From positions 2,784,001-2,848,000 of the forward strand of contig OZ255842.1 in assembly GCA_965277805.1 (NCBI GenBank): DNA of 64,000 nt, given 5' to 3'. The DNA is from Candidatus Lustribacter sp. Its GTDB lineage: Bacteria; Vulcanimicrobiota; Vulcanimicrobiia; Vulcanimicrobiales; Vulcanimicrobiaceae. The notes under the pieces were generated by a model. That model saw only the letters and a list, made by a program, of their open reading frames with translations, ran no database searches and was not told where the DNA came from. Position numbers and translations under genes: made by a program. This document shows positions 20,005-27,825 of this stretch, in pieces (position 1 is the first letter of the stretch; each line of letters starts with the position of its first letter).

Positions 20005-21418
20005 CCGTTCCTTCGCGTTCGACGCGCGCACGCAGGGTTCCGCGAGCAAGTTCGGCCTCGATGACCGTGCCCGGCGGGGCGTCGGCCGCATCGCGAATCA
20101 GGCGCCCCCCGGCTCGAACGATCGCATAACCGCGTTTCAGCAATGTTTCGTGGTTGTTGGCATCAAATCGCGCCTTGAGCATCTCCAATTTGGCCGTATC
20201 GCGGGCGACGACGCGCAGGAACGCCGGCCGCAGCCGGGCGACGAGCGGCGCGAGACGCGCGCGCCGCTTGACGGTGATCTCGCCGCCGAGCCGTTCGAGG
20301 GCGTCGCGCAGGTTCGTGACCCGGCCGCGGCGCCGCTCGAGCAGCGCGCGCGGAGATGAGAGGGTCAAGCGCCGGTCGAGGGGCTGCAGGAGCGTGCGCG
20401 AGCGCCGGATTTGCCGTTCGGCGGCGGAGTTCAGCGCGTTGCGCAACACGTCGACGGCCTGCCGGCGCGCTTGCAGCAGGCGGCCGGGATCGGCGACCGG
20501 CGAGCGGCGTTCGATGCGTTCGAGTGCCGAGCGCGCGCGCGCCAAGCGATTCGCGAACGCACGCCTCCCGGACGCCGCGCGTTCGCCGACGAGGCGCAAC
20601 AGATCGTCGCGTTTGGGCAGTACGGTTTGCGCGGCCGTCGACGGCGTCGACGCCCGCACGTCGGCCACGAGTTCGATCAACGGGACGTCGCGTTCGTGAC
20701 CGATAGCGGCCACGGTCGGCGTCGCGCACGCCGCGAACGCGCGCACGACCCGCTCGTCGGAGAAGCCGAACAGATCTTCGTACGAACCGCCGCCGCGGAC
20801 GATGACGAGCAGATCGCTGCCCGATGCATCGGCCGCGCGAATCGCGTGCACGATCTCCGGTACCGCGCCGACGCCGTTCACGGCGGTAGGAAACAACTTC
20901 AGCGCGACGTGCGGCGCACGCTGACGCGCCTGCGTGACGAAATCGCGCGTGCCGTCGCCGGTCGGCGAACCGACGAGCGCGACGCGGAACGGATAGCGCG
21001 GTACCGGCTTCTTGCGCCCGGCCGAAAAGAGGCCTTCGCGCTGCAGTTTGGCGCTGAGCTCTTCGTACTTTGCATGGAGCGCGCCGACGCCGGTCAGTTC
21101 GAGCTTCGTTGCGACGAGCTGGTAGGTCGAGGCGGCGCGCGCGTAAATCTTCACCTCGCCGTACGCGACGACGTCCGCGCCGTTGTCGAAGGCCGGAAAC
21201 GCGGCTGCACGCTCGCCGAAGGCGACGCAGTTGAGCACCGACTCTTTGTCCTTCAGCGAGAAATACACGTTGCCGTTGGGCTGCACTTTGAGGTTCGAGA
21301 CCTCGCCCTGCACGCCGACGAAGTGCAGGTGCCGGTCGTCGTTGAGTTTCTTGTCGAGGTAGCGCGAGAGCCGGCTGGGCGTAATGACCGGCGTCTTGGT
21401 ACCCGCAGACACGCTCAC
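19976..21418 (-). CDS. xseA: Exodeoxyribonuclease VII large subunit
   Basis: GEVSN, YFSLKD, VRGGGSYEDL, AIGHERD, ADVRASTPS. Confidence 0.96.
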   Translation of the reverse strand: MSVSAGTKTPVITPSRLSRYLDKKLNDDRHLHFVGVQGEVSNLKVQPNGNVYFSLKDKESVLNCVAFGERAAAFPAFDNGADVVAYGEVKIYARAASTYQLVATKLELTGVGALHAKYEELSAKLQREGLFSAGRKKPVPRYPFRVALVGSPTGDGTRDFVTQARQRAPHVALKLFPTAVNGVGAVPEIVHAIRAADASGSDLLVIVRGGGSYEDLFGFSDERVVRAFAACATPTVAAIGHERDVPLIELVADVRASTPSTAAQTVLPKRDDLLRLVGERAASGRRAFANRLARARSALERIERRSPVADPGRLLQARRQAVDVLRNALNSAAERQIRRSRTLLQPLDRRLTLSSPRALLERRRGRVTNLRDALERLGGEITVKRRARLAPLVARLRPAFLRVVARDTAKLEMLKARFDANNHETLLKRGYAIVRAGGRLIRDAADAPPGTVIEAELARGTLRARVEREGTDGGEQINLF

Positions 21419-23580
21419 GGCGTGGGCTGGGCCTGCGGTTTGTTATCCAGCGATTCGAACGTGGTGCCGTCACCGATCGAATCGTTCGGCGTCGCCGGCG
21501 CCGCCGGCTCGGCGATCGCGGCCTTGGGCACCGTTGCGGCGGCCTTCTTCACCGCGCTGCCATTCTTCGGCACGTAGGGATTCGGCGTCGCGCCGTCACC
21601 GCACACGTGCGAGGGTTCGGTGCCGCTGATGAACACTTCGGAGCGGCCGGTATCGCACAGCGTCACGCGTCGCACCTCGCCGGCCGGCAGCGTGAAATCG
21701 TGCTTCGGCGTTTTGGCCAGCGCCGCTTTCATGAAGCGCGCCCAGATACGCGCCGGCACGTCGCCGCCGTAACTCTCGTTCATGCGGTGGTAGTTGTCGT
21801 TTCCGATCCACACCGCGGCCACCAAGTCGGGCGTAAAGCCGACGAACCAAGCATCGCGAAAGTCCGAGGTCGTGCCCGTTTTGCCGGCCGCGGGCCGGCC
21901 GATCTGCGCGTTCGGATACCCGGTGCCTTCGTTGATCACCGATTGCAGCATCGAGGTCACGACGTAGGCGGTGCCGGCGCTCACGACTTCGGTCTGCTGC
22001 GGATACGAATTGTCGAGCACCGGCGTTCCGAACGAATCGCGCACGATGCGAATCGGCGTCGGATCGATGTGGATGCCGGCGTTGGCCAGCGTGGCGTAGC
22101 CCGCCGCCTGATCGAGCGGCGCGACGCCGCTGGTGCCGAGCGCGAGCGAAAGGTTGGCTTCGAGCGGCGCCTTGACGCCCATGCGCTTCGCGTACTCCAT
22201 CACTTTGTCGATGCCGAGCTGATCCGCCAGCTTCACCGCCACGACGTTGCGCGACTGCGCGAGCGCATAACGCAGCGTGATCGGACCGAGGAAGCGATGG
22301 TCGTCATCTTGCGGCGCCCAGCGCGTGCCGTCGCCCATCGGATAGGAGATCGGCGAATCGTCGATCGTCGTGGTCGGCGACATGCCGCTGTCGATCGCGG
22401 CGGTGTAAACGTACGCCTTGAACGACGAACCGGGCTGACGGCGCGCCTGCCAAGCGCGATTGAACTGGTTGTTGAGCGAGAACGGACCGGCGCCGCCGAC
22501 CATCGCCAAGATCTCACCGGTCGAGGGACGGATCGCGACGAGCGCGCCTTCGTTCGCGCCGATACCCTCGGACTTGCCCTGAGCGATGCCCCAATCGACG
22601 GCGTCCTGCGCGGCTTGCTGCATCCGAGGATCCATCGTCGTGTAGACTTGCAAGCCGCCTTCGAACGTCGCTTGCGAACCGAACTGCGCTTCGAGCAAAT
22701 GCGTCACGTACGTCGTGAAGTACGGATACTTGTAGGACTGCAAACCGGTCGGGCGTTCGTGAATGAGTCCGAGCGGTTTGGCAAGTGCCGCATCTTCCTG
22801 GTCTTGCGAGATGAAGTCGCTCGCAACCATGCGGTCGAGGACGTGGTGCTGGCGCTCCTTCGCGCGATCGAGATTGACGAATGGCGAATAGTCCGACGGC
22901 GCCGCCGGCAAACCGGCCAGCATCGCGGCCTGACCGATCGTCAAGTGCGAGACGTCGGTGCCGAAATACGTATGCGCGGCCGCCTGAATGCCGTAGGCAC
23001 CCGAACCGAAGTAGATGATGTTGAGGTAGCGCTCGAGGATCTCGTCCTTCGTGTAGTAGCGCTCGATCTCGATCGCCAGCAGCGCTTCCTGCACTTTGCG
23101 CGAGAGCGACACCTCACCGTTGAGAAACAGACGGCGCGCTAACTGCTGCGTGATCGTCGAGGCGCCCTGGAACTGTTCGTGGCGCCAGTCGGCGATGCCG
23201 GCGCGCAGAATGCCGCCGAAATCCACGCCGTGATGCTGGTAGAAATGCTGATCTTCGGTGGCGATGAACGCGTTGCGGACCGGTACCGGGATCTGCGCGA
23301 TCGGCACCCAGATCCGGTTCTCGGTATAGAGGTTCGCGAGCTGCGAGCCGTCGCGCGCGAAGACGCGCGTCGAACGCGAGGGCTGATAGTCCGCCATCCG
23401 GTTGATGTCGGGCAAGTTGCGCGAGTACGACGCGACGAGGCCCGCGACGATGCCCGCGCCGAGCAGCACCACGAACATCGCGATGAGCCCGATGATGCGC
23501 AGAACGCTGCTCCCCGGCCGGCCCGGAGCGCGCTTGCGCGTGCGCGACTTCGCGCGGGGCCGCGCCGCGCTACGCGCCAC
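21415..23580 (-). CDS. Class A penicillin-binding protein (PBP1A family)
   Basis: EDQHFYQHHG, GASTITQQLAR, RQPGSSFK, SRN, GKTGT. Confidence 0.96.
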   Translation of the reverse strand: MARSAARPRAKSRTRKRAPGRPGSSVLRIIGLIAMFVVLLGAGIVAGLVASYSRNLPDINRMADYQPSRSTRVFARDGSQLANLYTENRIWVPIAQIPVPVRNAFIATEDQHFYQHHGVDFGGILRAGIADWRHEQFQGASTITQQLARRLFLNGEVSLSRKVQEALLAIEIERYYTKDEILERYLNIIYFGSGAYGIQAAAHTYFGTDVSHLTIGQAAMLAGLPAAPSDYSPFVNLDRAKERQHHVLDRMVASDFISQDQEDAALAKPLGLIHERPTGLQSYKYPYFTTYVTHLLEAQFGSQATFEGGLQVYTTMDPRMQQAAQDAVDWGIAQGKSEGIGANEGALVAIRPSTGEILAMVGGAGPFSLNNQFNRAWQARRQPGSSFKAYVYTAAIDSGMSPTTTIDDSPISYPMGDGTRWAPQDDDHRFLGPITLRYALAQSRNVVAVKLADQLGIDKVMEYAKRMGVKAPLEANLSLALGTSGVAPLDQAAGYATLANAGIHIDPTPIRIVRDSFGTPVLDNSYPQQTEVVSAGTAYVVTSMLQSVINEGTGYPNAQIGRPAAGKTGTTSDFRDAWFVGFTPDLVAAVWIGNDNYHRMNESYGGDVPARIWARFMKAALAKTPKHDFTLPAGEVRRVTLCDTGRSEVFISGTEPSHVCGDGATPNPYVPKNGSAVKKAAATVPKAAIAEPAAPATPNDSIGDGTTFESLDNKPQAQPTP

Positions 23581-23971
23581 GTGCCGCTCGCGAGAGCACG
23601 CCGTTGACGAACCGGCCCGAATCCTCGGTGGAAAACTTCTTCGCCAACTCGACGGCTTCGTTGATCACGACGGGCTGCGGGGTTTCGGTGCGATGGCGCA
23701 ACTCGAACACGCCCATGCGCAGCACGATGCGGTCGATCGTCGGCAAACGTTCGAGCGTCCAGCCTTCGAGCAGCGGTCCGATCAGCGCATCGCTCTCCTC
23801 GGCGAACTCGAGCGTGCCGAACACGAGGTCTTTCACGAACGCGCGGCCGTCGGCGCCGTCGATGCGGGCCGTCGTTTCGACGAGCATATCCTCGGCGGTG
23901 CGGTGACCGACTTCGGTACCGTACAACGTCTGCAAAGCCAGCTCACGCGCAAACCGCCGCGACGAGCTCAT
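23570..23971 (-). CDS. nusB: Transcription antitermination factor NusB
   Basis: RRFARELALQTLY, VINEAVELAK, FVNGVL. Confidence 0.96.
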   Translation of the reverse strand: MSSSRRFARELALQTLYGTEVGHRTAEDMLVETTARIDGADGRAFVKDLVFGTLEFAEESDALIGPLLEGWTLERLPTIDRIVLRMGVFELRHRTETPQPVVINEAVELAKKFSTEDSGRFVNGVLSRAARGA

Positions 23972-25326
23972 ACCGCTGCCGGCACGCGTTGCGCCAGGTA
24001 GCGGGGGAGCCAGTCCACGCCGAGGCCCGCGCGATGGAAATCCGGGTCGCGCATGATCTCACGGCAGAACTCGACCGTCGTCTTCACGCCCTCGATACGT
24101 GTTTCCGCGAGCGCACGTTCCATTCGCATGATCGCCGATTCGCGGGTGCGGCCGGTCACGATGATCTTGGCAAGCATCGAATCGTAGAACGGCGGCACGA
24201 CCGATCCCGAGTACACGTGCGTGTCGACTCGCACGCCCGGGCCGCCCGGGAATTCAACGCGTCCGAGCGTTCCGGCCGCCGGCGCGAAGTTGTTCTCCGG
24301 GTCCTCGGCGTTAACGCGCACTTCGATCGCGCAGCCGTGCGGCTGCAGGTCGGCCTGCGTGAAGCCGAGCCGCTCGCCGGCCGCAATGCGAATCTGTTCT
24401 TTGACGAGATCGACGCCGTACACCATCTCGGTGACCGGATGCTCGACTTGGATGCGGGTGTTCATCTCCATGAAGTACACGTTGGGACCGTCGACCAGAA
24501 ATTCCAGCGTCCCGGCGTTGGTGTATTTCACGGCGCGCGCCGCGGTGACCGCGATGTCGTGCAGGCGATCGCGCACCGCCGGATCGAGCGCCGCCGCCGG
24601 CGCTTCTTCGATCAGCTTTTGATGCGAAGGCTTCTGTACGGAACAATCGCGCTCGCCCAGATGCACGACGTCGCCGTATTGATCGCCGAGCACTTGCACT
24701 TCGATGTGCCGCGGCGAGCGGATCAGTTTTTCAACGTACATGCGGCCGTCTTTGAACGACGCCTCGGCTTCGGCCGACGCGTTTGCAAATGCCGAGGCCA
24801 TCTCGGCCGGCGACTCTACCGCGCGCATGCCCTTGCCGCCGCCGCCGGCCGTTGCCTTGAGCAGCACCGGGTAGCCGATCTCGGCGGCAAACGCGGCCGC
24901 GGCTTCGGGCGAGGTGAGGATGCCGCTGCCGGGGGTCGTCGGTACGCCCGACTCGTCCATGATGCGGCGCGCCGTCGCCTTGTCGCCCATCGCGGCGATG
25001 ACACTCGGTTCCGGCCCGATGAACGTGAGCCCGTGGTCGCGCGCGATTTCGGCGAAGCGCGCGTTCTCGGCGAGAAAACCGTATCCGGGGTGGATCGCAT
25101 CGGCGCCGCAGATCAGCCCGGTCGAGATGATGTTGGCGATGTTGAGATACGACGATGCGACCGGACCCGCACCGACGCAGAACGCTTCGTCCGCGTGGCG
25201 CACGTGCAGCGAGCCGCGATCGGCTTGGCTGAAGATCGCGACGGTCGCGACGCCGAGTTCGTGACATGCGCGATTGATGCGCAGCGCGATCTCGCCGCGA
25301 TTAGCGATGAGTACCTTACGAAACAC
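23968..25326 (-). CDS. accC: Biotin carboxylase
   Basis: KVLIANRGEIA, HPGYGFLAEN, GGGGKGMR, EMNTRIQVEHPVTE. Confidence 0.97.
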   Translation of the reverse strand: MFRKVLIANRGEIALRINRACHELGVATVAIFSQADRGSLHVRHADEAFCVGAGPVASSYLNIANIISTGLICGADAIHPGYGFLAENARFAEIARDHGLTFIGPEPSVIAAMGDKATARRIMDESGVPTTPGSGILTSPEAAAAFAAEIGYPVLLKATAGGGGKGMRAVESPAEMASAFANASAEAEASFKDGRMYVEKLIRSPRHIEVQVLGDQYGDVVHLGERDCSVQKPSHQKLIEEAPAAALDPAVRDRLHDIAVTAARAVKYTNAGTLEFLVDGPNVYFMEMNTRIQVEHPVTEMVYGVDLVKEQIRIAAGERLGFTQADLQPHGCAIEVRVNAEDPENNFAPAAGTLGRVEFPGGPGVRVDTHVYSGSVVPPFYDSMLAKIIVTGRTRESAIMRMERALAETRIEGVKTTVEFCREIMRDPDFHRAGLGVDWLPRYLAQRVPAAV

Positions 25327-25329
25327 GAG

Positions 25330-25734
25330 TTACCGTTCGATCGCGAACAGCGGCTGACCGTATTCAACCGGTTGGCCGTCGGTGACGTAGATCATGGCGA
25401 CGCGTCCCGGGCCGCGCGAACGAACCGGATTGCGGATGCCCAGCGTTTCGACGTAGGCCAGCTCGCGATCACCCTCGAGCGTCATTCCCTCGTTCACCGC
25501 AGGACGCAAGTAGCGGATGATGCCCACGACGTCGGCCAGAATCGCCTCGACGGGACGCGCGGCGGCCGGCTCCTTCGCCGGGCCGGCTGCGGCCCCGGCG
25601 CCCGTGAGCGTCGCCGGAGCGCGGCGGAATTCGACCTCGAACTCGCCATCTTTCACCCGCAGCCGCGTGAGCCCACCATCGCTGAAGGCCCTGGCCAGCG
25701 GGCGCACGCGCTCCGCAATTGTGTCTTGGAACAT
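25330..25734 (-). CDS. Biotin carboxyl carrier protein homolog lacking the biotinylated lysine
   Basis: BCCP architecture and position (N-terminal LRVKDGEFEV, Ala/Pro linker, DGQPVEYGQPLFAIE), but VETLGIRNPV replaces EAMKxxN. Confidence 0.85.
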   Translation of the reverse strand: MFQDTIAERVRPLARAFSDGGLTRLRVKDGEFEVEFRRAPATLTGAGAAAGPAKEPAAARPVEAILADVVGIIRYLRPAVNEGMTLEGDRELAYVETLGIRNPVRSRGPGRVAMIYVTDGQPVEYGQPLFAIER

Positions 25735-25821
25735 CGAAAGGCCGATTTTCGAGACAACCGGGAGCGGTCCCGCTGGGCCATATAGAATAGGCGAACGAGC
25801 GATTGTCTTCGGAGAGGGCGA

Positions 25822-27825
25822 TTGAGCGCAACTCAGGTGACCGTTAACCTCGACTCGTGGTTCCGCGTCGTCTATCCGCAAGATTTCAACTTGCCCGGTT
25901 CGCTTGCTCATGCCCTCGACGCGGCCGGTATCGCCCATCAGGCCGGAACCTTCCCCTATACCGGCGACGGCGGCGACGACGTCAGCGTCGCTTACTTGGT
26001 CGAGGCCGAGCGCTTGGCCGCACTGGGTTCGCATAAAAAGATCAGGCACGCGCTCGAATTGATCGAACACGCCGGCTCCGCGGCGACGATCGTCGTCGCC
26101 GACCCCGGCGAGATCGCGATGATGTGGCTGGCCGAGAGCGAGCACATTGCCGGCTGGCTCGTCCGTCCGCTCGATCCGGTGGCGGTCATCGCCACGATCA
26201 CCGCGGCCCGCCGCATGCTCAAAGACCGCGCCGAGGCCGGGCGCATGAGCGAGATGGCCGTGGCAATGACGGAAGAGACCGACCGCTTGCTCTCGATCGG
26301 CGTCGCACTTTCGGCCGAACGCGACATCTCGAAGCTGCACGAACTGATCGTGCGCAACGCGCGCGAACTGACGCGCGCCGACGGCGGCAGCCTTTTCCTG
26401 GTCGAAAAGGACGAGAGCGGCACCGACAAGCTGCGTTTCGCGGTGGCCCAAACCGGCCCCGACGACGCCGGTACGCATTTGGGCGCCGTGCTGCCGCTCA
26501 CGCGCGGCTCGGTCGCAGGCTACGTCGCCCTCAGCGGCGAGGTGGTGCGGCTCGACGACGCCTACGAAATTCCCGAAGAGTCGGAATTCCGCTTCAACCA
26601 ATCGTTCGACAAACAGAACGGCTACCGGTCGAAGTCGATGATGGTCGTGCCGATGCGCGACCACGAGAACGCGATCGTCGGCGTCATTCAGCTGATCAAT
26701 CGCAAACCCGAGTTCGAACTCGTGCTGACCTCGCCGACGATGACCGAGCAAGTCGTCGAGCCGTTTACCACGCGCGACGAAAGCGTCTTGCTGTCATTGG
26801 CCTCGCAGGCCGGGGTCGCGCTGGAAAACAAAGCGCTGCTCGAATCGATCCAGGACCTCTTCGAACAGTTCGTGCGCGCGTCGGTCAAGGCGATCGAAGT
26901 GCGCGACAAGTCCACGCAGGGCCACTCCTCGCGCGTCGCCGAGCTGACCGTCGCCCAAGCGATTGCCGCGAATGCGGTCGAATCCGGCAAGTTCGCGCAA
27001 CTGCACTTCAACGAAGATGCTTTGCGCGAGATGCGCTACGCCGCGCTGCTGCACGATTTCGGCAAGGTCGCCGTGCCCGAGTACATCTTCGGCAAAGCGA
27101 AGAAACTGCCCGACGGCAAACTCGACGCGATCCGCCTGCGGTTTCTCCTCGCGATCAACCAGATCGAAGCGCTCGGTGCGCGGCGCAAATTCGAACTGCT
27201 GCAATCGGGCGTCGCGCTCGACGATCACCGCATCGTGGAGATCGACGCCGATACGACCTCGCACGCGGGCGAGCTGCAGGCCCTGCTCGCGACGGTCGAG
27301 TCGGCGAACGAACCGCGCGTGGTTGCGGCGGAAATCGGCGCGCTGCTCGACTCCATCATCGGCAAGACGTATCGCGATCTCGAAGAGGAAAAGCCGCTGC
27401 TCGATACGGCCGAGTTCGATTTCCTGCGCATTCCGCGCGGCTCGCTCTCCAATGACGAACGCCAGAAGATGGAACAGCACGTCACGCAGTCGTTTTACTT
27501 CCTGCGTGAAATCCCGTGGGCCAAGACACCGTGGCGCAACGTGCCCGACCTCGCCTACGGTCATCACGAACACCTCGACGGCACCGGATATCCGCGCGGG
27601 CTCAAGGACACCGAGATCGCGCCGCAAGTACGCATGCTGACGATCGCCGACGTCTACGACGCCTTGACCGCGAAGGACCGGCCGTACAAAGCAGCGATGC
27701 CGATCGACCGCGCGCTCGACATCCTGGTCAAGGAATTTGCCCAGCGCGGCAAGGTCGATAGCGAGCTGCTCGACCTCTTCATCGCCCGCAAAGTCTACGA
27801 GACGATCGACGTCGCCAAGACATAG
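25822..27825 (+). CDS. GAF + HD-GYP cyclic-dinucleotide phosphodiesterase
   Basis: GAF (FNQSFDKQNGYRSKSMMVVPM); TQGHSSRV, LLHDFGK, HHEHLDGTGYP, IADVYDALT, RPYK. Confidence 0.92.
   Translation: MSATQVTVNLDSWFRVVYPQDFNLPGSLAHALDAAGIAHQAGTFPYTGDGGDDVSVAYLVEAERLAALGSHKKIRHALELIEHAGSAATIVVADPGEIAMMWLAESEHIAGWLVRPLDPVAVIATITAARRMLKDRAEAGRMSEMAVAMTEETDRLLSIGVALSAERDISKLHELIVRNARELTRADGGSLFLVEKDESGTDKLRFAVAQTGPDDAGTHLGAVLPLTRGSVAGYVALSGEVVRLDDAYEIPEESEFRFNQSFDKQNGYRSKSMMVVPMRDHENAIVGVIQLINRKPEFELVLTSPTMTEQVVEPFTTRDESVLLSLASQAGVALENKALLESIQDLFEQFVRASVKAIEVRDKSTQGHSSRVAELTVAQAIAANAVESGKFAQLHFNEDALREMRYAALLHDFGKVAVPEYIFGKAKKLPDGKLDAIRLRFLLAINQIEALGARRKFELLQSGVALDDHRIVEIDADTTSHAGELQALLATVESANEPRVVAAEIGALLDSIIGKTYRDLEEEKPLLDTAEFDFLRIPRGSLSNDERQKMEQHVTQSFYFLREIPWAKTPWRNVPDLAYGHHEHLDGTGYPRGLKDTEIAPQVRMLTIADVYDALTAKDRPYKAAMPIDRALDILVKEFAQRGKVDSELLDLFIARKVYETIDVAKT

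Follow-up and report, generated by a model that had tools for sequence, protein, structure and literature searches.

Bacteria of the group represented here probably possess an extra, non-catalytic subunit of acetyl-CoA carboxylase (ACC) resembling the BADC proteins of plants. In a 64,000-nucleotide stretch of the Candidatus Lustribacter sp. genome (the window), the gene directly upstream of accC, which encodes biotin carboxylase (BC), specifies a protein built like the biotin carboxyl carrier protein (BCCP, or AccB) but with glycine where the carrier has its biotinyl-lysine. On balance we favour the reading that this protein, here termed pseudo-BCCP, is a non-catalytic, AccC-binding subunit that works like plant BADC, with an AccB encoded elsewhere in the genome as the carrier proper.

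In published passages, among them those of PMC11926652 and PMC7212373, BADCs figure as inactive BCCP analogues that carry no biotin and that either mediate or cap the BC–BCCP interaction or displace BCCP. The same passages treat BADC as a trait that separates the plant ACCase from the bacterial enzyme; whether its role is that of an inhibitor or an assembly factor is disputed. Our full-text searches, which covered mostly abstracts and passages and had the primary BADC papers outside their scope, returned no published description of a Lys-less BCCP paralogue in bacteria. A paper on the fused BC–BCCP of Chloroflexus contains no description of a Lys-less BCCP. A bacterial counterpart would offer a simple system in which to settle the inhibitor-versus-assembly question, since its four or five proteins are small and soluble and could be produced in Escherichia coli.

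The window is part of a single 5.53-Mb contig, and the genus is placed by NCBI in Vulcanimicrobiota (= Eremiobacterota). The features of the locus are given in Table 1. The TAA stop codon of the pseudo-BCCP gene (25330–25332) and the GTG start codon of accC (25324–25326) are separated by a spacer of 3 nt. The string of BCCP-like gene, accC and nusB is conserved, with the BCCP-like gene followed by accC in 41 of 41 related genomes and nusB 3′ of accC in most of these loci. A scan of positions 21000–26200 returned no sigma-70-like promoter sites and none with the consensus in the presumed promoter region; the terminator-like sites in the same range number two, both on the + strand, which is fewer than in shuffled sequences.

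Table 1 Features of the pseudo-BCCP locus, in window coordinates
Feature	Position	Strand	Evidence or remark
Pseudo-BCCP gene (134 aa, stop included)	25330..25734	-	Open reading frame and translation; Biotin_lipoyl; alignment to 4hr7_B
N-terminal domain, residues 1-38	25621..25734	-	AlphaFold2 helix 3-19 and beta-hairpin 24-37; pLDDT 56-61
Ala/Pro-rich flexible linker, residues 39-60	25555..25620	-	Sequence; pLDDT <50 at 40-52
Biotinyl-type beta-barrel, residues 61-134	25333..25554	-	AlphaFold2 pLDDT 93-97; no Lys
Hairpin-tip motif ETLGIRN, replacing EAMKMMN	25429..25449	-	Codons GAA ACG CTG GGC ATC CGC AAT
accC, biotin carboxylase, 452 aa	23968..25326	-	TIGR00514 631.6 bits (cut-off 626.5)
nusB	23570..23971	-	Pfam NusB 114.4 bits; 4-nt overlap with the accC end
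Intergenic region, 87 nt, between the BCCP-like gene and a divergent GAF-HD gene	25735..25821	.	Presumed operon promoter region

The original prediction, made from the DNA letters, had described a BCCP architecture, accC 3 nt downstream, the ETLGIRN codons and a barrel devoid of lysine, and the open reading frame, its translation and the alignment to E. coli BCCP (4hr7_B) bear out each of these. That alignment, made with the family profile, is full length (profile positions 8–139 on 4hr7_B residues 24–176; E 2.5e-18) and sets 'vEaLgirn' over 'VEAMKMMN', so that Gly99 (codon GGC, 25438–25440) falls on the residue that we take to be the biotinyl-lysine of the E. coli protein. Pseudo-BCCP has just two lysines: K28 lies in the N-terminal domain, and K54, which is not conserved in the family alignment, lies in the linker; residues 61–134 have none. 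Because glycine occupies the biotinyl-lysine position and the barrel is without lysine, pseudo-BCCP should be incapable of biotinylation, which for the Gly forms of the family we regard as nearly certain. Two further departures accompany the change. Leucine, not methionine, precedes the Lys position in 39 of 39 rows of the class alignment, and the BCCP 'thumb' is shortened, with a five-residue gap opposite E. coli 'tpspd'; the canonical AccB of the same genome retains its thumb (APSPGADPF), and some accC-linked members outside the class keep the thumb length. Pseudo-BCCP passes the Pfam Biotin_lipoyl model (27.8 bits; cut-off 22.1) and does not reach the cut-off of the AccB equivalog TIGR00531 (43.7 bits; cut-off 115.2).

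An AlphaFold2 model built with a 39-row alignment places this divergent sequence within the BCCP fold. Foldseek matches the barrel to 1bdo, the biotinyl domain of E. coli BCCP (TMt 0.81; r.m.s.d. 1.8 Å), with further matches to 4hr7_G and to Arabidopsis BCCP1 (9a87). The N-terminal domain matches the BC-interacting N-terminal domain of BCCP, in a part of the model that is of low confidence (pLDDT 56–61).

A true accB had been predicted to lie elsewhere, and a genome search for an AMK-containing BCCP located it 1.4 Mb from accC (G000:C1:4241806-4242270). The gene encodes 154 aa with the motif LEAMKLMNEI (LCILEAMKLMNEI), scores 111.4 bits on TIGR00531 (cut-off 115.2) and sits in a tightly packed run of hisS, accB, a SIS (GmhA-like) gene and a HAD (GmhB-like) gene. 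The genome also contains accD–accA and birA, the latter an open frame of 266 aa whose match covers the ligase core only. Two Biotin_carb_C matches were found genome-wide, accC and one long frame that fuses a BC and a BCCP domain. AccC is thus the only free-standing biotin carboxylase of the genome, and pseudo-BCCP and canonical AccB must therefore share it. AccC itself looks active, given a score above its equivalog cut-off and an alignment whose invariant columns include what we take to be the catalytic residues of E. coli BC. The same pairing recurs among the relatives: a canonical AccB (about 100–133 bits) accompanies a weakly scoring accC-linked copy in 39 of 41, and the two that have no canonical match are assemblies 89–90% complete. 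Among 19 hisS-linked accB loci, all have EAMK and hisS upstream, and 18 have the SIS gene downstream.

Loss of the lysine is a property of the lineage. Glycine occupies the position in all 67 intact orthologues of the two families that make up the window's order (f1 and f2), which span more than 50 genera: 28 of the 28 f1 and f2 sequences in the 39-row alignment and 39 of 39 further f1 orthologues from 39 further genera (66 of 66 when an unpublished genome, G015, is left out). Across the 67, the hairpin reads E[AST]LG[IV]R[NT] with almost no variation. Because the same glycine recurs in every one of them, a sequencing error as the source of the loss is ruled out, in agreement with the earlier view that the change is no single-base error. 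Conservation of the Lys-to-Gly change across the phylum, put forward originally as a check, holds in part: the change is fixed in the window's order, but the sister family f3 has lysine in 13 and arginine in 6 of 19 sequences (one of the arginines from an unpublished genome, G036), and N, R, S, G or K stands at the position in other classes. Within f3, K can give way to R, or R to K, even among species that pair closely on the 77-row tree, and 17 of the 19 proteins carry an extra conserved C-terminal tail ending in EPPR[LIM].

The gene is under purifying selection. Across 21 within-genus pairs, dN/dS (Nei–Gojobori) is 0.11–0.30 for the whole gene and 0.04–0.25 for the barrel; between G000 and G005 it is 0.268 for the Lys-less gene, 0.236 for canonical accB and 0.097 for accC. 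Strain-specific decay, which the original prediction had named as an outcome that would refute it, is ruled out by the lineage-wide loss of the lysine together with this purifying selection, since the Lys-less gene is as constrained as that of the real carrier (in round figures, 0.27 against 0.24). The copies in two relatives, G003 and G012, seem frameshifted, which could reflect assembly error or dispensability. The reading put forward originally—a non-catalytic, BADC-like subunit co-expressed with accC—is supported in what could be computed from it; its binding and function we infer.

The trees suggest that the two copies parted long ago. In a quick IQ-TREE analysis of bacterial sequences (87 rows, 158 columns), the accC-linked proteins of the class group in a starred clade (98) whose stem is long, and the unlinked canonical AccBs of the phylum form a starred clade of 28 (97), which has an internal order that matches taxonomy and is placed among the canonical AccBs of other phyla; the accC-linked rows from outside the class lie on long, unresolved branches. 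When the 27 accC-linked rows were constrained together, the log-likelihood was 33.8 above that of the free quick tree and p-AU was 0.931, so that a single origin of the accC-linked copies is not rejected, a result in which long-branch attraction could favour the joined rows. A second tree of 77 rows, rooted on 13 unlinked copies and with the Lys column kept as one of 157, has the accC-linked rows on one side of a branch with support of 94, and requires at least 13 changes between K and non-K, 4 of them forced by starred branches. Both trees were obtained from short alignments by quick searches and have many long branches; read accordingly, they suggest that the paralogue pair is old, that the accC-linked copy occupies the ancestral accB slot, and that the lysine may have been lost or swapped many times in this copy and never in the unlinked one. 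That the biotinyl-lysine goes repeatedly from a BCCP paralogue that is itself kept would point to a role of the BCCP–BC contacts in which biotin has no part. The origin of pseudo-BCCP is probably independent of that of plant BADC, the protein grouping with bacterial accC-linked copies in these bacterial-only trees, and common descent of the two is unlikely.

The accC-linked copy extends well beyond the order. When 401 genomes of the phylum, 15 unpublished ones among those tallied, were searched with the profile, strong matches, mostly at E 1e-33 or better, came up in 295 of 296 f1, 5 of 5 f2 and 30 of 30 f3 genomes, with weaker matches in other families; the 'stops inside' flags in this search probably arise where the profile was read past the natural stop. 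Ten genomes sampled from ten other families in other classes of the phylum (among them one labelled 'Armatimonadetes bacterium' and one 'Bacillota bacterium' by NCBI) all have a BCCP-like gene adjacent to accC, with N in five at the Lys position, G in two, and R, S and K in one each. In each of the ten, an EAMK gene is also present apart from accC, and hisS adjoins it in six.

A second phylum was sampled around an NCBI-labelled Armatimonadota MAG, with no genome common to the first sample, and at least two BCCP-type matches were found in 60 of its 61 genomes. Of the best 30 loci, 17 have K and 13 lack it, the latter with G (6), R (3) or, once each, T, S, A and D; accC is within the locus in 26 of the 30. 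The unlinked copy reads [AT]MK in all 16 cases fetched, none of them beside hisS or accC. Overall, the unlinked copy retains its lysine in 45 of 45 cases examined, and the residues seen at this position in accC-linked copies comprise G, R, N, S, T, A, D, H and K. The Lys-bearing members in f3 and the second phylum could still be biotinylated carriers, and the family is thus not uniformly 'dead'.

In a library of 1.84 billion representatives, the family profile matches 41 proteins at E 1e-30 or better. The best 150 matches divide into 76 Lys-less (G 39, R 21, N 7, S 6, A 2, H 1) and 74 Lys-bearing forms. Organism labels are present on four of 30 representative clusters, two being Armatimonadetes/Armatimonadota with Lys-less forms and one Chromatiaceae, on a 1.4-kb contig, with a Lys-bearing form. 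Species genomes were scanned as well, and the 80 loci obtained, mainly canonical accB of Planctomycetota, Nitrospirota, Bacillota, Pseudomonadota, Cyanobacteriota and further phyla, served for contrast and as outgroups. They have the lysine in 79 (77 as AMK) and accC downstream in 70; the sole Lys-less locus is a contig of the pseudo-BCCP family itself, and these 80 loci do not show the family outside its clade.

How pseudo-BCCP might engage AccC was modelled with alignments of 34 rows for AccC and 39 for pseudo-BCCP. The predicted complex scores 0.76, against 0.52 for the best of three controls, on a measure whose mark is attained by 116 of the 157 solved complexes and by 2 of the 215 mismatched pairs. 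Two points call for caution: the score of 0.52 was still obtained with pseudo-BCCP kept and AccC swapped for an unrelated 479-aa protein, and, as the similar E. coli BC–BCCP complex (4HR7) is already solved, the pass may show likeness only. The runs have at least 81% of contacts in common, with a partner pLDDT of at least 72. The modelled interface involves AccC residues 34, 49–53, 59, 64–69, 71–72 and 98, and, on the pseudo-BCCP side, V69–I72, T97, L98, I100, P122 and E124–Q127. These contacts take in the class-invariant V70, G71, L98 and G126 and the PVEYGQ motif characteristic of the accC-linked family.

From these observations we infer a structural or regulatory role, and propose the following mechanism. 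Pseudo-BCCP and AccC would be produced jointly, their genes being translationally coupled, and pseudo-BCCP would bind AccC by way of the barrel and the N-terminal domain that it has kept, taking some of the BCCP sites on biotin carboxylase, while the canonical AccB of the hisS–accB operon would serve as the carboxyl carrier proper. Occupancy of these sites would then organize the BC–BCCP subcomplex, or set its activity, as BADC does in the plastid ACCase. The sequence data would fit scaffolding and damping of the subcomplex alike.

The main rival, which we consider unlikely though worth serious attention, gives the same contact the opposite sense: pseudo-BCCP would compete with holo-AccB for AccC sites and lower ACC flux, as a brake and not as a structural subunit. 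Its structural basis is the same, namely the absent lysine, the retained barrel and N-terminal domain, and the modelled contact with AccC, and it corresponds to the inhibitor model first put forward for plant BADC: according to a review passage (PMC7212373), BADCs had been suggested to inhibit by displacing BCCP. An unvarying gene order and the 3-nt coupling to accC, however, imply a fixed ratio to AccC and argue for a stoichiometric structural partner over a conditional inhibitor; an inhibitor made constitutively along with an essential enzyme would be less economical than a structural partner; and, in passages of PMC11926652, structural data argue against the inhibitory model even in plants.

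Somewhat less probable still is a function away from ACC catalysis, with pseudo-BCCP regulating its own operon, serving as a BirA or PII decoy, or linking AccC to another partner as an adaptor. In E. coli, the N-terminal domain of AccB autoregulates accBC transcription, and pseudo-BCCP retains this domain; the EPPR[LIM] tail of f3, moreover, resembles a docking peptide for another partner. Against this, the most conserved family-specific residues map to the modelled AccC interface, and neither Pfam nor NCBIfam detects a DNA-binding feature in pseudo-BCCP. A BirA-repressor circuit is unlikely, as BirA is short and, its frame matching the ligase core only, probably has no DNA-binding domain.

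It is very improbable that pseudo-BCCP is a decaying relic of the ancestral accB, kept only for the expression signals of accC (translational coupling or promoter). Its place in the ancestral slot, the long branches and the two apparent frameshifts would fit such a history, but the barrel is constrained to a level like that of the real accB, its fold is predicted with high pLDDT, the gene has been kept across two phyla and the hairpin motif is near-invariant in 67 orthologues, where a mere spacer would not conserve protein sequence. Least credible of all is that pseudo-BCCP is still a carrier, through biotin or another group on a non-canonical residue or by working with free biotin: beyond the canonical-position lysine kept in some members of other lineages nothing specific speaks for it, and against it stand a barrel without lysine, the placement of K28 and K54 outside the barrel with K54 not conserved, and the canonical accB present in nearly all relatives.

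The preferred reading, a non-catalytic partner of AccC, can be extended, more tentatively and with the balance tilting slightly against it, to the whole of a large clade. Pseudo-BCCP would then be an obligate fifth subunit of ACC in Eremiobacterota/Vulcanimicrobiota and in the second, Armatimonadota-labelled phylum, one that gave up biotin repeatedly, each time independently, after a second accB took over the carrier role and was retained as a structural partner of BC. If so, the BCCP sites on BC would have a biotin-independent architectural function, and plants and bacteria would have converged on one division of labour, BCCP plus BADC.

Compared with the BADCs of plants and green algae (Arabidopsis BADC1–3 in the plastid heteromeric ACCase), pseudo-BCCP is likewise BCCP-like and, as judged from its residues, non-biotinylated; it coexists with AccB and AccC as BADC does with a true BCCP and a single BC, and binding to the BC–BCCP subcomplex is proposed for both. 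Unlike BADC, it is found in bacteria, its gene shares an operon with accC and holds the ancestral accB slot, its family varies at the Lys position by lineage and, in the window's form, the thumb is shortened. With bacterial AccB (E. coli AccB, 1BDO, 4HR7, TIGR00531) it has in common the three-part architecture, the barrel fold and the slot directly upstream of accC, as in 70 of the 80 loci from other phyla; it differs from AccB in having no biotinyl-lysine, a Leu for the preceding Met, a five-residue thumb deletion and a TIGR00531 score below the cut-off. A looser parallel is found in the actinobacterial AccE/PccE, which are small and non-catalytic and help to assemble a bacterial biotin-dependent carboxylase, as is proposed here for pseudo-BCCP. 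We take these proteins to be unrelated to it in sequence and fold, acting at the interface of the carboxyltransferase and alpha subunits and not being BCCP paralogues. A passage of PMC11926652 draws a parallel between such epsilon 'glue' subunits and BADC.

The finding would also correct the JGI annotation of the accC-linked Lys-less proteins: their present name, 'acetyl-CoA carboxylase biotin carboxyl carrier protein', would lead metabolic reconstructions astray for Eremiobacterota and Armatimonadota.

On the nusB side, the gene string that begins with the BCCP-like gene and accC may not end with nusB. A frame for a putative class A penicillin-binding protein (PBP) shares 11 nt with the end of nusB, and the string may therefore extend to BCCP-like gene–accC–nusB–PBP. 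At the opposite end, 87 nt separate the BCCP-like gene from a divergent gene whose GAF and HD domains suggest a phosphohydrolase of the signalling type.

Features flanking the string or located elsewhere in the genome (G000)
Feature	Position	Strand	Remarks
667-aa protein, GAF + HD_5/HD domains	window 25822-27825	+	divergent from BCCP-like gene
721-aa ORF, putative class A PBP	window 21415-23580	-	identity assigned by eye
hisS–accB–SIS (GmhA-like)–HAD (GmhB-like) string	G000:C1:4240312-4243749 (L001)		outside window; tightly packed
Second biotin carboxylase domain	G000:C1:5118131-5118964 (L002, L011, L064)		one long open frame shared with biotinyl domain

The spacing to accC is not constant: the spacer is 3 nt in the window, whereas at numerous second-phylum loci (L242-L271) the BCCP-like gene is separated from the first aligned accC residue by about 350–600 nt, where another small gene may lie. 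The protein itself also varies at its C terminus. In f3, the sister family to those of the window's order, the accC-linked BCCP-like proteins (L050-L060, L234-L241) carry an extension of 20–40 residues that is absent from their counterparts in the window's order; it terminates in a conserved (I/L/A)EPPR(L/I/M) motif in 17 of the 19 f3 members and looks like a short docking peptide. In two relatives, the accC-linked gene appears frameshifted (L028 in G003 and L061 in G012), each being recovered by tblastn as two pieces in different frames. Both assemblies comprise few contigs, and the apparent frameshifts may reflect either sequencing error or real inactivation.

The canonical, Lys-bearing accB of G000 resides in a separate string within which stop and start codons overlap. 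Its linkage to hisS was observed in all 19 loci of the window's class and in 6 of 10 out-of-class loci, and in none of the 16 loci of the second phylum. Besides accC, G000 encodes a single biotin carboxylase domain, and the frame joining it to a biotinyl domain presumably encodes an acyl-CoA carboxylase alpha chain. In the relative G020, two additional small BCCP paralogues bear an EVMK motif (L107 and L108, at two places on G020:C4), bringing the BCCP-type genes of that genome to four with the hisS-linked accB and the accC-linked Gly form.
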